64,000 nucleotides of DNA from Eledone cirrhosa. Lineage: Eukaryota. The stretch lies in NCBI GenBank assembly GCA_964016885.1, contig OZ024742.1, positions 272,924,001-272,988,000 on the forward strand, written 5' to 3'. Below, one piece after another: positions 791 to 56,550 of this stretch (its first letter is position 1; every line of letters begins with the position of its first letter). The position numbers and the translations under genes were made by a program. The notes beneath the pieces were generated by a model, which was not told the DNA's origin, searched no databases, and worked only from the letters and a program-made list of their open reading frames with translations.

Positions 791-3213
791 GAATGCATAC
801 ATTCTATGCTTTTCCTTGTCGTGTTGTTCACTGTTGTTTCTGTTATCATATTGAAATGGGCGTCATATGTTGTCATATTGAAATGTGCCAAATGAGTTGT
901 AAATAATATTATTAATAATAATAATTATATTCCTATTATTAAGTTGAAATGTATTAGCTACAGTTGTTATTGTCCTCATCATTGTGATTGATATATATGA
1001 GTTAAAATACGTGAAAATTAATTCTGATATTGCCGATCTTGAACAAAATCCGGATGGTCTTACTATAAAGCCATGAAAATAATGTTGAAAAAACAATTTA
1101 ATTTAAATGTCTAACTATATGACCTCGGGATGAATTTAATCGGCTGAAACATGGATTAGTTTGAATACGCAGTGATTTCTTTGATGTTTTTTTTTAATAA
1201 ATAGAATACATACATTTAGCTTCGTACGGACGTATAATAACACACATACACGCATAAACACACATGCTTACGCACGTACACAAGTATAGCTCTTTTTACA
1301 AAACGTTTTTTTTTTCCATTTCAGGTAGACGCGCTCCATCATCCACTTGTCTAAAAAATAAATGATACACAAAACACCAGCACCAACAATTTTGCAAGAG
1401 ATATTACCATGAATTTAACTGTTGTTTTTATATAAAGACATTTTTTCCAATTCCAGTCCGCCCGTCCCCTCAATATATCTTAGTTCTCATTCTTTCTTCT
1501 GAGGAAGGAATAGCGTCGTATACGTTAAGACCCTCTTCCTGCTATATCAAGCGTTAACCTAATATATCCCTTCCATATATATTGTACCGAGTGTGTAGTT
1601 ATTTATGTTTACCTTTTATATACATACATAAATAGATACATACATATATATATATATATATATATATATGCAAAGTTTTATTTAAATTGTTGGGTTAACA
1701 ACGAGTAAATATTTATAACTGATATAAAAGCACTCAACAAGTATTTGGAGTATATTTACGATATTAAATAAATGGAAACTATATTTATAAAACCATATTT
1801 ATTTCATTATATATATTTCAGGGATATCATATTAAAAATATGTTATGCCTTCTTCAGACAAAATACAATATAAACAGTCTTATAAATAGATAGATTCGAC
1901 ATACCTTTCAACTTCGACTTCTATTTGAAAAGTTGATTTGGTAGTGAAAAAATATTAGGGACAGTTATAAAAAGAAAGAAAGAAAAACGAAGAAAAAGAA
2001 GAAATGCATGCAACTAAATAGAGAGAGATAGATATAGAGAGATAGATAGAGAGAAGAAATTCATGTAAAGAAACAGAGAGAGATATTTAGAGAGAGGAAA
2101 AAACACAGAGGGAGATAGATAGAGAGAGAGAGAGAGAAGAGAGGAGAGAGAGAGGGAGAGAAAATATAGAGAGATAGATAGAGATAGAGATAGAGAGAAA
2201 GAAACTAGGTAGTTGGGCACCAGTTGAATGACGTATCAATGATATATTTATTTATTTATTTAGCTCTAGTATTAATGTAGAGAGAGATATATGTGGTTAA
2301 GAGAGAAAACAGCCGTTACATAGAGAGAAAAGAAAAATATCCAAACAAAAACGAGGCAGATTTAAAACACTATGTTTCATCAATGTAAAAAATATCAATT
2401 CGTATAAAACAGGCATTATAATGTAAATATCAGTATTCATGAATGAGACACGTATCAATAATGTGTGAAAAATAATGATCATATGTCTAGTTTAAAATTC
2501 CTAGGTTTATATTAGAGTTGAGATAAATAGAAGGTTATCCCAGATTTTATACTATATACATCCATGTGAATTTACGTGATCAGCTCTGCAAATTCCTATT
2601 TCACACGAAAACATTCTCATTGTGCTATAAAAATTTAAGTATACATATATGTGTACATACACACAAATATATATAGAGTCTACATTAATTTTAACAATAC
2701 TATTCATGTCTTTACTCTACATGATTATCGTTCAAGCATAAATAGAGAACAGATATCAATATATCAATAAAAATATCAGAAACAAAAAGTAAATAAAAAC
2801 AAAAAAAATCAAAAAAATATTAAAAATAAAAATATTAAAAATATTAAAAATATTAAAATAAAAATAAAACATAGTATGCCCCGCAAATCAACCACAGAGA
2901 TCAACCCTTCAAAGTTAATTGACAATATATTGCCAAGTTCGTTATAAGCATCAGAATCAAAAGCAAACAAAACCAAAAATTATTTACCAAATCCTGTCTA
3001 GCAGAAAACATTCCAAAAGTTTAGGATACCCATTTGATCTACAGATGGTCTTATATTTAATATAGAAGTTTATCTAGTGTAAAATGTATTCGATATATTT
3101 GGAGCATCAGCTTTTAGGGTAGTTTAATTATTCATGAAGAATGTTTAAAATAAAAAGGAATCGAAAGATTTATCGGCGAGTTTCATAAATAATTATAAAT
3201 CAAATTAAATATA

Positions 3214-3882
3214 CTACATTTTAAATTTATATTTATATTTAAAAGTTGAGTTCAATCTATGTCTGCAGCAACTGAATAAATTTGTCCGTAAATTAAGGGA
3301 ATTTTTAGATTTTAGTATAAAGAATATCTCCTCCGCGCAGAGGTCACATGTCTCAGAGGATGAATTAAAAGGAATCCCTCTTGAGACTATATTCCAAGCC
3401 GTTGAATATCCAACGTTATCATGCCTAAGTTGCCAGAGTAGGCCTGATAGTGATGTTGAGGATTTTTTGCTTGGATCTGTGAAAGAATTCTTATGGTTAT
3501 TATAGCGAAGTTTAAATTCTGTCGAGGTGGAACCAACATAGTTAAAAGAATTTAAGTCCGTTTTAACATTACAGTTGTATATTATATTTTTAACTAAGCA
3601 ATTGTTATTTAACGGACATTTAGATCTATCTCTACAGTTACATTTGTTAACTTGGATATTATTTATGCTATTATCGGTATTTTGGCTAGGTTTTAAATTC
3701 CTATTATTTATTCTATTAATATTTTGTGCTAAATTTTTGGTGGATGAGTAGGTTAATTTTATAGTATGTCTATTGAAAATTGAGTGATACCTATGTGTTC
3801 TAGGGAAGCGATTATCAAGAGCATTAAAGAATAGTTTAGCGATGTGGGTTTTAATGTTTAGTGAGAAAAGGGGGGAGGGCAA
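3214..3882 (-). CDS. PLE RT-thumb/linker plus GIY-YIG endonuclease (truncated ORF)
   Basis: 222-aa ORF: FP..HRYHSIFNRHTIKLTYS, CNCRDRSKCPLNNNCL, IIYNC..NYVGST..FKLRYNNH, CDLCAEE, LNLR..CCRH. Confidence 0.85.
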   Translation of the reverse strand: MPSPLFSLNIKTHIAKLFFNALDNRFPRTHRYHSIFNRHTIKLTYSSTKNLAQNINRINNRNLKPSQNTDNSINNIQVNKCNCRDRSKCPLNNNCLVKNIIYNCNVKTDLNSFNYVGSTSTEFKLRYNNHKNSFTDPSKKSSTSLSGLLWQLRHDNVGYSTAWNIVSRGIPFNSSSETCDLCAEEIFFILKSKNSLNLRTNLFSCCRHRLNSTFKYKYKFKM

Positions 3883-4183
3883 ACCATATTATATTCCTAG
3901 TTCTATTTCTTTTTTGGCTTTTGGAATTATTGTAATGCTTTCTATTATAGTTGTTAAAGTTGTTGCCGTAATTTCTTTACATCAATTTCTTCTCTCTATC
4001 TATCTCTCTATATCTATCTCTCTCTATTTAGTTGCATGCATTTCTTCTTTTTCTTCGTTTTTCTTTCTTTCTTTTTATAACTGTCCCTAGTATTTTTTCA
4101 CTACCAAATCAACTTTTCAAATAGAAGTCGAAGTTGAAAGGTATGTCGAATCTATCTATTTATAAGACTGTTTATATTGTATT

Positions 4184-4240
4184 TTGTCTGAAGAAGGCAT
4201 AACATATTTTTAATATGATATCCCTGAAATATATATAATG
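4184..4240 (+). ncRNA. Minimal hammerhead ribozyme-like motif in pLTR (mirror copy on minus strand at ~1805-1861)
   Basis: CTGAAGA-agg(c)at..at(c)cct-GAAA-tata-TA; stem I weak. Confidence 0.55.
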
Positions 4241-4352
4241 AAATAAATATGGTTTTATAAATATAGTTTCCATTTATTTAATATATATATATATATATAT
4301 ATATATATATATATATATATATATATATATATATATATATATATATATATAT

Positions 4353-54520: not shown

Positions 54521-54657
54521 ACACACACACAGACACACACACACACACACACACACACACACACACACACACACACACATACACACACACACACACACAC
54601 ACACACACACACACACACACACACACACACACACACACACATATATATATATATATA

Positions 54658-55860
54658 TTTAAGATCCGGCTCTACCAACACCGACATACATTCCGAAACC
54701 CGGTCCGGCGACATACCACCACACTTTCGAGCCATATCTGGGACCTCCAAGATAATAATATAACTTACCATCTTACTTGGAGCTTACTGTCCATAGCTAA
54801 CTCTTACACGGGAGTACGCCGTCCGTGTAACTTATGCTCGGAGGAAACATTACAAATGCAGTTTAAGAAGGATCAACTCCTAAACAAAAAAGACGAACTG
54901 GTAACTGCATACAAACACAGATTGCGGAAGACTTTCCTTGCCCTGAAACCCCCTAACTATCAGGGTGGGTAAAAAAGGGCTGAAAGACCCCACTTGCCGA
55001 ATAAGATAGGGAAAACCGCAACTTATATAGGTAGAGGTACCTCTTTTCTTTTTCTCTATGTTTTCTTCTTCCCTTTGTCTCCTCCTATCCCTTCTTTCCA
55101 CCACCGATCTTCTTCCTCGTTCGTTTCTTGTTTTTTTCCCATTTCACCTACCCCGAGGCAGCCCATCGGGCCTCTTTAGCCTCAGCACCCCAGTAACGTA
55201 TAGATAGCATTGGCCAAATACGCTATACTAACTATTCATATAAGCTGTGTTAGACGCCAGAGATGTGGTATTAATGTTTAATACCCAATTCTAAATTTTC
55301 AATAATTCTCATCTAGCAACTTATTCTATAGCATTGGCCGAAAAGGCATAACCAACTAAATATAGCAGATGTGTTAGACTCCTTTTTTGTTTTATTTCAC
55401 TTCTCACTTTTCACTCTTACATTCTGATATATCTTTCTCTCAATTGTTATTATATTCTTTTTTATTATATTTTTTCATTGTCCCCTAATCCCATTTAATC
55501 TACTAATTCTATAAGGTCCCTCATCCATTTTCTAAAGAAACCTTTTTTCGCCTATCTCTTCTGGCCTACTTTCATACACAATCCTTAGAATTTGCCGTGT
55601 AGATTTCACCTTCAACGCTTGACGGGCTCTACCCACCCCCTATCGTTCTACAGGCAAGTTCAGCCACCCCACTCCGAACACACTGCCATGTTAGACTTTT
55701 CTGTGTCTGCTACAAATTTTGACCAATCCACTTGACAACTACAATCTTCCCATATGAAGAAGTACCCCTTTATCAGACTAATAAAACTCTTACTTTAGTC
55801 CAGGAATAGCCGTCGAAACGGCTTGAGCTCTACAGTGGGGTCATACTTTCTCCTATTATA
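54658..55860 (+). mobile_element. 5'-truncated PLE (Naiad-like GIY-YIG C-terminus plus 3' region/pLTR)
   Basis: FKIRLYQHRHTFR..TTLSSHIWDL..LTWSLL..PCNLCSEE..LLNKKDELV..KHR; degenerate HHR at 55749-55842; (TA)n flanks. Confidence 0.8.
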
Positions 55861-56350
55861 TATAAATATATATATATATTCGTTTGATTAAAATAAAAGG
55901 AGACTGGATTGGTGGTTTTCTTTTAAAATGTTCTTGTTGCAAAATCATTCAATGACAACGTTACATAAGATACTGGCGACATCATCGGGCGCGGATTACA
56001 TAATAAGTTAATCAATAAAGGATTTACGGCAAACGGAAGAAGAGAAAATATATAAAAAAATATTTCATTCGGAGATTGGCCACCACATAGATAATATTAT
56101 TGCCGCATATCACCTCCGAATATGTAACTTCGTTCCAGCATTAAGCACAGGATTATACGTCAACGATGAATTAGATGCGCAACGTAGATTGCTTTATAAA
56201 CTATAATATCGTGAGTAAATAAACGGAAAGAACAGTTCTAGTCAGTGTTAAACCACTAAACATAAATGTATACACACATATACACACACACACCCACACA
56301 CACACACACATATGAATATATATATATATATATATATATATATATATATA

Positions 56351-56550
56351 GTGCTAAAATGTACGTTATTCCGGGTTGAATCGGAGGTAACCACAGTAAG
56401 TAAGGTACTCAATACATAGCAGAGTATAACAGTTTTAATATAGATGAGATTCTACAGGACTAGAACTGTTTCATTCATTAGAAATCATCATGATGATTTC
56501 TAATGAATGAAACAGTTCTAGTCCTGTAGAATCTCATCTATATTAAAACT
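56351..56550 (-). mobile_element. Fold-back mini-element: perfect loop-less 120 bp palindrome plus 80 bp tail in (TA)n
   Basis: 56431-56490 / 56491-56550 exact reverse complement; tail 56351-56430. Confidence 0.9.

Follow-up and report, generated by a model that had tools for sequence, protein, structure and literature searches.

Head-to-head Penelope-like element insertions at (TA)n sites of Eledone cirrhosa and a predicted twin-hairpin signal near their ends

A 64-kb stretch of the Eledone cirrhosa genome (assembly GCA_964016885.1, contig OZ024742.1, positions 272,924,001 to 272,988,000 of the forward strand), referred to here as the window, contains seven inserts in (TA)n repeats that were singled out and labelled E1 to E7. 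The inserts belong to families of Penelope-like elements (PLEs), the sister group of the telomerase reverse transcriptases, and six of them combine a palindrome with a tail that is left out of the inversion. From the sequences of the inserts and of their relatives, they are shortened head-to-head products of coding PLEs, and we consider it probable that they were generated by two primings, which would be positioned by two hairpins on one RNA.

Inserts of the window and their coding relatives

The layout of the inserts was scored by self-alignment, with shuffled sequences as the control. Palindrome scores were 105 to 1135 in E1, E2, E3, E4, E6 and E7, against shuffled maxima of 24 to 46, and the tails of these six measure 48 to 91 nt. 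All seven inserts lie between (TA)n runs, the left run of E4 being degenerate, and a random window position would lie equally close to the edge of a (TA)6+ run with a probability of 0.017. A preliminary description had ascribed a common design of (TA)n, palindrome and tail to a set of sequence-unrelated inserts. The (TA)n setting holds for all seven and the palindrome with tail for six, but E5 (53393-53545) has no palindrome and consists of an inverted tail and a forward arm without common sequence; likewise E1, E2, E3, E6 and E7 are unrelated to one another, but E4 and E5 are one family. In the list below, P is the proximal family-fixed end, which has no tail, and D the distal family-fixed end, which includes the tail; ORF stands for open reading frame and UTR for untranslated region, and all hairpins are predicted.

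1670-4284: E1, Hydra-clade PLE insertion with arms 1761-2073 and 3972-4284 (311/313 identical) and a 91-nt tail
1670-3971, minus strand: E1 tailed arm, with the 3' part of the ORF and the 3' UTR, joined head-to-head to the tail-less arm
3972-4284, plus strand: E1 tail-less arm, 313 nt
1670-1760, minus strand: E1 tail, the sequence between the P and D end sites
1729-1751, minus strand: E1 hairpin 1 (ACUC...UUGAGUGCU), 7 nt downstream of the P site
1816-1857, minus strand: E1 type-I hammerhead core, CUGAAGA to GAAA
4188-4229, plus strand: E1 hammerhead core in the tail-less arm
3217-3888, minus strand: C-terminal piece of the E1 ORF, comprising the CxCX5C linker and the endonuclease of Hydra type (CxxC, CxH)
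4357-5039: E2, palindrome 4357-4991 with arms of ~320 nt and a 48-nt tail; CCHH-type PLE, not Hydra
34385-35314: E3, 94-nt inverted tail-less arm and 835-nt forward arm, alignment 88/93, 60-nt tail
E3 forward arm: GIY-YIG piece, hammerhead (35067-35095) and the 60-nt tail of a CX4CxxC and CCHH PLE, putatively of the Neptune/Nematis type
51644-51846: E4, older mini-palindrome of the E4/E5 Hydra family, arms 100/125, 76-nt tail
51779-51802, plus strand: E4 hairpin 1, one outer-stem base changed
53394-53544: E5, no palindrome (score 13, shuffled maximum 27)
53392-53477, minus strand: E5 tailed arm, cut at about the P site
53489-53548, plus strand: E5 tail-less arm, extending to the inferred transcription start
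53442-53465, minus strand: E5 hairpin 1, one outer-stem base changed
53570-53828: E6, Hydra-family mini-palindrome (53570-53761, 178/192) with a 67-nt tail
53612-53633, minus strand, and 53698-53719, plus strand: E6 hammerhead cores, the latter with one point change
53770-53792, plus strand: E6 hairpin 1, 6-8 nt downstream of P, present in the predicted minimum-energy fold
56351-56549: E7, Hydra family, perfect palindrome with arms 118/118 and an 81-nt tail
56405-56425, minus strand: E7 hairpin 1, ~6 nt downstream of the P site
54659-55865, plus strand: 1.2-kb, 5'-truncated coding copy of the E4/E5 family with the endonuclease end and 3' UTR, stopping at P in (TA)n

Relatives were fetched from the 3.0-Gb genome or from metagenomes as loci that carry L-numbers. 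ORF-bearing copies were found for every family: intact ORFs of 750 amino acids for E1 (L282, L284), an ORF in two or more pieces for E7 (L290-L293), partial ORFs for E4/E5 (L220, L221, L228, L236) and E6 (L037, L067), and ORF copies for E3 (L298) and E2 (L085, L091, L033). Exact 24- to 25-mers matched the genome 54,342 times for E4/E5, 17,504 times for E7 and 6,228 times for E6, with no matches for reversed-pattern controls, and all 150 scored genome matches of E1 were 97-100 % identical. The possibility that E4/E5 has no coding parent was rejected by its long copies. Because every family has ORF-bearing copies, the mini-palindromes are the short end of the PLE insertion products and not a separate non-coding family. 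The proposal that such inserts are products of PLE pseudo-long terminal repeats (pLTRs), targeted to (TA)n throughout the genome, was borne out. Its extension to a non-coding, self-propagating system was not, as the window itself holds a coding copy (54659-55865) and 235 of 237 sampled palindrome junctions are distinct.

The Hydra families have a single ORF, with under ~3 kb of coding sequence, for a reverse transcriptase plus an endonuclease of the GIY-YIG type at the C-terminus. A CxCX5C linker replaces CX2-5CxxC (L282, L284, L290, L291, L221, L037), DKT is found in the E1, E7 and E6 loci, and the RWK-type motif is RWR in E1 and E7; the E4/E5 loci do not cover this region. The endonuclease lacks CCHH and has CDLC, CNLC or CGLC with a terminal CxH around a conserved E and N. 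A hammerhead in the pLTR and insertion into (TA)n, which also characterize the clade, are both present, the E4/E5 core being the U3-A8 variant. By the defining motifs given in PMC8557442, E1, E4/E5, E6 and E7 are classed as Hydra-clade PLEs. The motifs of E2 and E3 place them in PLE clade(s) other than Hydra: both are CCHH-type, E3 with a CX4CxxC linker and two cysteines inside GIY-YIG, E2 with a reduced linker. Neptune and Nematis are the candidate clades. L439 shares 35 % identity with the E1 ORF and 40 % with the E7 ORF, neither of which matches the E3 ORF; the hammerhead letters of L439 match Penelope-1_NV (File S2 of PMC8557442). Pfam did not detect GIY-YIG in the E1 ORF and found it only in an unrelated Neptune-type piece. 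A metagenome scan with a single sequence gave no match, and a DNA search with the AT-rich E1 tail gave none either, E1 itself included, so that this search is uninformative. In NCBI records, cephalopod homologues of the Hydra ORF (P0033, P0062) bear the name 'GATA zinc finger domain-containing protein 14-like', probably a misannotation caused by the Asn-rich linker.

Insert ends, predicted hairpins and pairing of the arms

The tails of the four Hydra families contain, just after P, the letters ACUC, an inner stem of 3-4 bp, a U-rich bulge of 1-2 nt and GAGURCU, which are predicted to form a hairpin with the consensus RCUC...YGAGYRCU. A 19-protein alignment was used to collect distant Hydra relatives, and the best 80 of at least 391 confirmed stretches yielded 77 metagenome loci. 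The motif lies on the ORF strand in 64 of these 77, mostly as GCUC...YGAGCACU, and 40 of them have tandem hairpins 48-74 nt apart. Sense matches numbered 127 over the 77 loci, against 12 antisense matches and 1-8 per shuffle. Among 93 distinct hairpins, inner pair 1 is Watson-Crick in 90 (C-G in 61, U-A in 29; shuffled mean 50.9, slid controls 1 and 10), pair 2 in 62 (shuffled 28.7) and pair 3 in 50 (23.2), pair 4 being weak; the outer pair is G-C in the relatives and mostly A-U in hairpin 1 of E. cirrhosa. This covariation of the inner pairs suggests a single-stranded fold rather than a duplex DNA site. An Rfam search of eight parent or related loci left the twin hairpin unmatched and returned only microsatellite-driven microRNA and small nucleolar RNA matches. 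One published Hydra consensus, in the supplement of PMC8557442, contains the motif.

In the Hydra families, insert ends of either type, P or D, lie 4-9 nt upstream of such a hairpin. In the E. cirrhosa genome 323 ends were tied to a hairpin by a shared 16-mer and 66 (CT)n artefacts were dropped; 223 of the remaining 257 (TA)n-bounded ends lie 4-9 nt upstream of the hairpin. Five of eight metagenome ends lie 6-11 nt from it. A second hairpin follows the D site at 6 nt in E4 (L322) and at 9 nt in E1 (L279, L284), and inserts that end at P or D lose the hairpin lying next downstream. In the full-length copy L282 the E1 tail continues into the ORF leader, the tail and both hairpins lying between the upstream pLTR and the ORF, and the downstream pLTR stops at P.

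The two ends are combined according to a strict rule. Among 85 same-family head-to-head pairs, taken as loci in chromosome order, 77 were D+P, none D+D, two P+P and six intermediate; random and independent choice of ends would make D+P half of the pairs. Genome-wide patterns of one E4 subfamily gave 3,564 P+D, 22 P+P and, as an upper limit, 148 D+D-like inserts, and of four loci inspected per minor class, three D+D-like and one P+P were really P+D. In the 77 D+P inserts (TA)n follows D in 71 and P in 73, and TA-like letters are present in the element at both end sites. The arms of 48 of the 77 are within 10 nt of each other in length; the P arm is longer in 21 and the D arm in eight, the D arm never reaches P in seven, and L282 combines a P arm of 4.4 kb with a D arm of 313 nt.

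The palindrome axis varies while the outer boundaries are fixed per family, one of the two outcomes envisaged in the preliminary description, as was checked in position-ordered samples. Only two of the 237 sampled junctions are not distinct, and one repeat was the same locus fetched twice. In longer genome lists some junctions recur on short microhomologies, those of 4 nt occurring in different subfamilies and in P+P inserts; templated duplications are also present, and short self-complementarity is frequent at junctions. Microhomology joins with templated duplications are typical of polymerase theta joining. A fixed axis in E6, seen in the first search, was due to ranking bias and disappeared in tail-anchored and position-ordered samples. 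We left head-to-head joins of mixed families (L057, L159, L161, L168, L177, L185) out of the evidence, as they are explained by a deletion that joins adjacent inserts of one (TA)n tract; in a further mixed-family case (L090) (TA)n lies in between.

The arms of one E4 insert differ by 2.56 positions per 44 nt, against 5.99 between inserts (81 pairs), and the corresponding values for E7 are 1.69 and 4.15 (13 pairs). Both arms usually belong to the same subfamily, and the partner of a long E4 arm is also long in 46 of 100 cases, though long arms make up only ~3 % of the exact matches. From the shared subfamily and the pairing of long with long, both arms of an insert are likely to derive from one RNA.

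Possible mode of origin and alternatives

In the proposed mechanism, two reverse transcriptases, probably as a dimer, would be held on one RNA by the two tandem predicted hairpins, and each would prime on one strand of the cut (TA)n target. The two cDNAs would then be joined head-to-head, likely by microhomology-mediated repair. If it is the hairpins that hold the protein and fix where it starts, the tail would correspond to the spacing of the two starts. With both hairpins close to the 5' end of the RNA, where the pLTR meets the ORF, a linear template would be copied only from the transcript start to P and from the start to D: on an ordinary linear transcript, synthesis would reach the capped start, run off there and give minis of 100-260 bp, and copies of ORF length would need tandem or circular templates. 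In vitro results for a Poseidon PLE (PMC11167929) are in line with this two-priming reading. E2 and E3 share the D+P design without the motif and likely use another signal. A bolder form, which we put forward only tentatively from the sequences, makes twin priming obligate in Hydra-clade PLEs: two conserved, bulged hairpins 48-93 nt apart near the mRNA 5' end would dock a dimer of the reverse transcriptase-endonuclease that starts 6-9 nt upstream of each, tail and inverted copy would be the two halves of one reaction, linear capped transcripts would end as dead-end mini-palindromes by the tens of thousands, and ORF copies would come only from RNA that is tandem or circularised by the ribozyme.

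The 5' ends of the arms bear on the proposed run-off. Of 98 E4/E5 arms, 78 stop no more than 19 nt upstream of the anchor, eight at 27-91 nt and 12 beyond 290 nt; stops are most frequent at TT|AGTCC, 58 nt from P, and a TATTTAAA-like box lies ~30 nt upstream of this site. E7 arms pile up on CC|AGATT (65-67 nt), TATAAATA lying 30 nt upstream, and the head-to-head gap is 80 nt or less in 22 of 27 E7 pairs, two arms reaching the initiator-like site being expected to give 68. We take both boundaries to fit an initiator (YYANWYY) with a TATA-like box ~30 nt upstream. In E2 the stops of 13 of 59 arms fall on 320-322, and no clear box goes with them. The upstream strand of the ribozyme is reached by only 1,801 of the 54,342 exact E4/E5 arm matches, and at least 15,747 short E4 palindromes are present genome-wide. 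An extra G precedes +1 in 1,180 E4 arms, against an A in 179, and at +2 the counts are 336 for G and 343 for T; the extra G is missing from the 100 long copies listed, which were checked by eye, and apparently occurs on both arms of some inserts. Such a G is compatible with copying of a 5' cap. Boxes of the types GCGCATGCGC and CCGGATGT, presumably NRF1- and ETS-type promoter elements, lie just upstream of the usual E6 and E3 arm ends (L067, L376, L190, L215, L091), and E2 has a CG-rich box at a similar position.

The hammerheads are often incomplete in the inserts. A type-I descriptor matched the window five times, whereas 20 shuffled sequences gave 0-1 match each: both arms of E1, E3 (outside the arm), one arm of E6, the second arm being spoiled by its point change, and position 49873 outside the listed inserts. 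The statement that most inserts carry hammerhead cores was therefore too strong, since by this descriptor only three of seven (E1, E3, E6) have an intact predicted hammerhead. The E7 core is cut by the palindrome axis 4-5 nt inside the inferred transcription start, which is the first base of stem I, and E4 and E5 keep only the 3' half, the full core of the family being seen in long copies. The E4 boundary lies inside the loop of stem II (L228, L236, L237), so that a transcript from the inferred start in the upstream pLTR would carry only half a ribozyme. The commonest minis lack half of the ribozyme, and the predicted fold of an E6 read-through RNA is a single long stem that buries both ribozymes. 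The E2 family has no recurring core: three of five long copies scanned had none, and the single matches of the other two do not coincide in position (628 and 916 nt upstream). An Rfam search of the window returned only microsatellite-driven microRNA and small nucleolar RNA matches and no ribozyme. An axis set by fold-back at stem II was also considered and rejected, as the CUGANGA matches beside E4 arms were mostly by-products of the junctions.

Several points weigh against the two-priming reading. The motif is absent from E2 and E3, hairpin 2 after D is degenerate or unrecognisable in E6 and E7, three of the eight metagenome ends lie 13-37 nt from the hairpin, and the covariation counts ignore relatedness, the motif pattern itself having fixed the outer stem. 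The 5' ends of E6 spread broadly, as do those of E3, and stops 1-9 nt upstream of the proposed +1 also occur among E4 arms. Divergence within E6 inserts is close to that between them (2.93 and 3.28), an uninformative comparison of 41 pairs, and the arms of at least one E4 insert (L334) belong to different subfamilies. The excess of longer P arms (21 against eight of 77) is about the outcome of symmetric later deletions, so that the asymmetry alone is no proof of two primings.

Fold-back self-priming, the mechanism suggested in the preliminary description, appears unlikely, and less so than any other alternative. A cDNA or antisense RNA would snap back, the long hairpin would be trimmed by the endonuclease at P, so that one side alone keeps the tail, and the motif would be an endonuclease or resolution signal. 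Strict D+P pairing, the common subfamily of the arms, the near symmetry of the minis (48 of 77 within 10 nt) and junctions at short self-complementarity are all accounted for; fold-back on an antisense template has been proposed in PMC3846280, and PMC8557442 ascribes the tail to endonuclease-mediated resolution. However, later deletions are needed for the 21 inserts with a longer P arm, the seven in which the D arm falls short of P, and L282. The equal offset of P and D, the tail-less and the tailed end, from two copies of the motif is left unexplained, the inner-pair covariation favours a single-stranded fold over a duplex DNA site, and the extra G apparently stands on both arms of some inserts. 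With the offset shared by both ends and either arm free to be the longer, fold-back is less likely than two primings.

It is improbable that the minis owe their abundance to transcription from an internal promoter and re-copying in trans, as units like short interspersed elements (SINEs) or retrozymes. The very large numbers of short arms (the 54,342, 17,504 and 6,228 exact matches) and the recurrence of some junctions would fit, a re-copied mini would gain a new junction, so that junction diversity is compatible, and the Drosophila virilis Penelope has an internal promoter (PMC2377424). However, a tailed mini stops 6-9 nt before hairpin 2 and starts downstream of the TATA-like box, and thus lacks both. 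The nearly always distinct sampled junctions and the varying axis indicate that no internal structure is copied as a unit, the recurrent junctions stand on 4-nt microhomologies in different subfamilies and P+P inserts, and in a non-exhaustive comparison the common mini subfamilies mostly occur as long copies too.

The two-priming reading could also be kept with the 5' pile-up explained by an RNA cut or a reverse-transcriptase stop inside the hammerhead, the E4 boundary lying in the stem II loop and that of E7 at the start of stem I; this is very improbable, since neither boundary is the hammerhead cleavage site, both match the initiator-like consensus, and the extra G is peculiar to +1. Artefacts of assembly or of library fold-back, which the identity of the E7 arms might suggest, have next to no likelihood: in 67 of 81 E4 pairs the two arms are set apart by aged changes, mostly of CpG type, family-fixed ends occur at thousands of loci, and contigs of four public runs (at most two samples from one study, covering the families and not the whole locus) show the same TA junction after P and many different internal joints. 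Artefacts of this kind, which would have refuted the preliminary description, are largely discounted.

Relation to known elements and neighbouring features

Hydra-clade PLEs were described by Craig et al. 2021 (PMC8557442), including Hydra-1_Obim from Octopus bimaculoides, so that the clade was already known from a cephalopod. The families reported here resemble them in the C-terminal endonuclease without CCHH, in CxCX5C, DKT, RW(R/K), CxxC and CxH, and in the pLTR hammerhead, (TA)n insertion, inverted 5'-truncated copy and tail. They differ in tail length (67-91 nt here, 30-40 in the Hydra PLEs of PMC8557442), and the twin hairpin, the D+P rule and run-off minis are not described in the available portion of that account. 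In vitro, both strands are cut and extended by the Poseidon element PAc of Anolis (Frangieh et al. 2024, PMC11167929), whose reverse transcription begins at two sites inside the RNA, one at either edge of the tail. Two start sites, extension on both strands, an AT-rich target, a predicted dimer and an RNA signal near the ORF start are shared features. PAc belongs to a different clade, however, and has one AC-rich stem-loop instead of two conserved repeats, and the available text of PMC11167929 does not link its two sites to head-to-head products. The Adineta vaga Penelope (Arkhipova et al. 2013, PMC3846280) likewise has a head-to-head inverted pLTR, a one-sided tail and a TATA box with initiator in the pLTR, but in few copies, with self-priming on an antisense template as its explanation, against tens of thousands of copies here.

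The inserts share with non-LTR retrozymes type-I hammerheads with a palindromic helix III and the U3-A8 core variant, and with Schistosoma dual hammerhead motifs on opposite strands 100-700 bp apart. Retrozymes, however, are head-to-tail tandem units with complete ribozymes, whereas the inserts are single, head-to-head and often with half a ribozyme, a complete core being present in three of seven. Short head-to-tail arrays of the E7 pLTR and leader with a hammerhead per unit, which are retrozyme-like, occur at L114 and L118, and L037:5184-7180 is a 310-bp tandem array. In LINE-1 twin priming, the two target strands prime two cDNAs whose microhomology join gives an inversion. LINE-1 uses its second site opportunistically, and its segments are free of overlap; in the inserts described here the two sites have fixed positions, the arms overlap, and such an outcome is apparently the rule.

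Already in print are the inverted 5' copy, the tail, the (TA)n bias, pLTR hammerheads, the U3-A8 variant, dual opposite-strand hammerheads and an Octopus Hydra family (PMC8557442, PMC11167929, PMC3846280, PMC4209133, PMC2377424, PMC13282606, bioRxiv 10.64898/2026.07.22.740005). No title or abstract describing a twin hairpin, a D+P rule or minis formed by run-off was found in the openly accessible literature, though supplements and subscription papers may bear on them; the twin-hairpin signal and the pairing rule appear to be new. The origin of the PLE tail and inverted copies is a stated open question in PMC8557442 and PMC11167929, and the hairpin signal with the pairing rule makes it directly testable. 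A short covarying motif from which both insertion ends can be predicted to a few bases, even in distant hosts, provides a minimal in vitro substrate, clear mutations to test and a target for ribonucleoprotein structure. The twin-hairpin model could explain why PLEs need tandem or circular templates, and would account for at least 15,747 short palindromes of one family, of a kind that automated annotation may file as SINE, miniature inverted-repeat transposable element (MITE) or unknown. Where transcribed, the mini-palindromes could be a source of double-stranded RNA.

Several further features of the window were noted:

6814-7920, minus strand: 5'-truncated Neptune-type PLE with a reverse transcriptase thumb piece and GIY-YIG (PF01541, E 2.6e-06), ending at (TA)55
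45560-51160: further head-to-head PLE pair of large size, whose arms (45609-46012 and 50748-51152) are 89-91 % identical and enclose ~4.7 kb of nested material
45657-45696, minus strand, and 51065-51104, plus strand: hammerhead-like cores of this pair
45582-45605, minus strand: GCUC...GAGCACU hairpin of this pair
49873-49910 and 54303: hammerhead cores of further PLE families
50206-50229, plus strand, and 54067-54091, minus strand: hairpin-motif matches of further PLE families
53849-54056 and 54312-54521: direct repeats, 85 %
57024-57294: (TA)n-bounded insert, 83-86 % identical over ~75 nt to the E3 tail, probably an older D+P product of an E3 sister family
17706-18162 and 61507-61821: imperfect palindromes without (TA)n bounds, one in a region like a long interspersed element (LINE), the other MITE-like with terminal inverted repeats around degenerate TAACCC repeats

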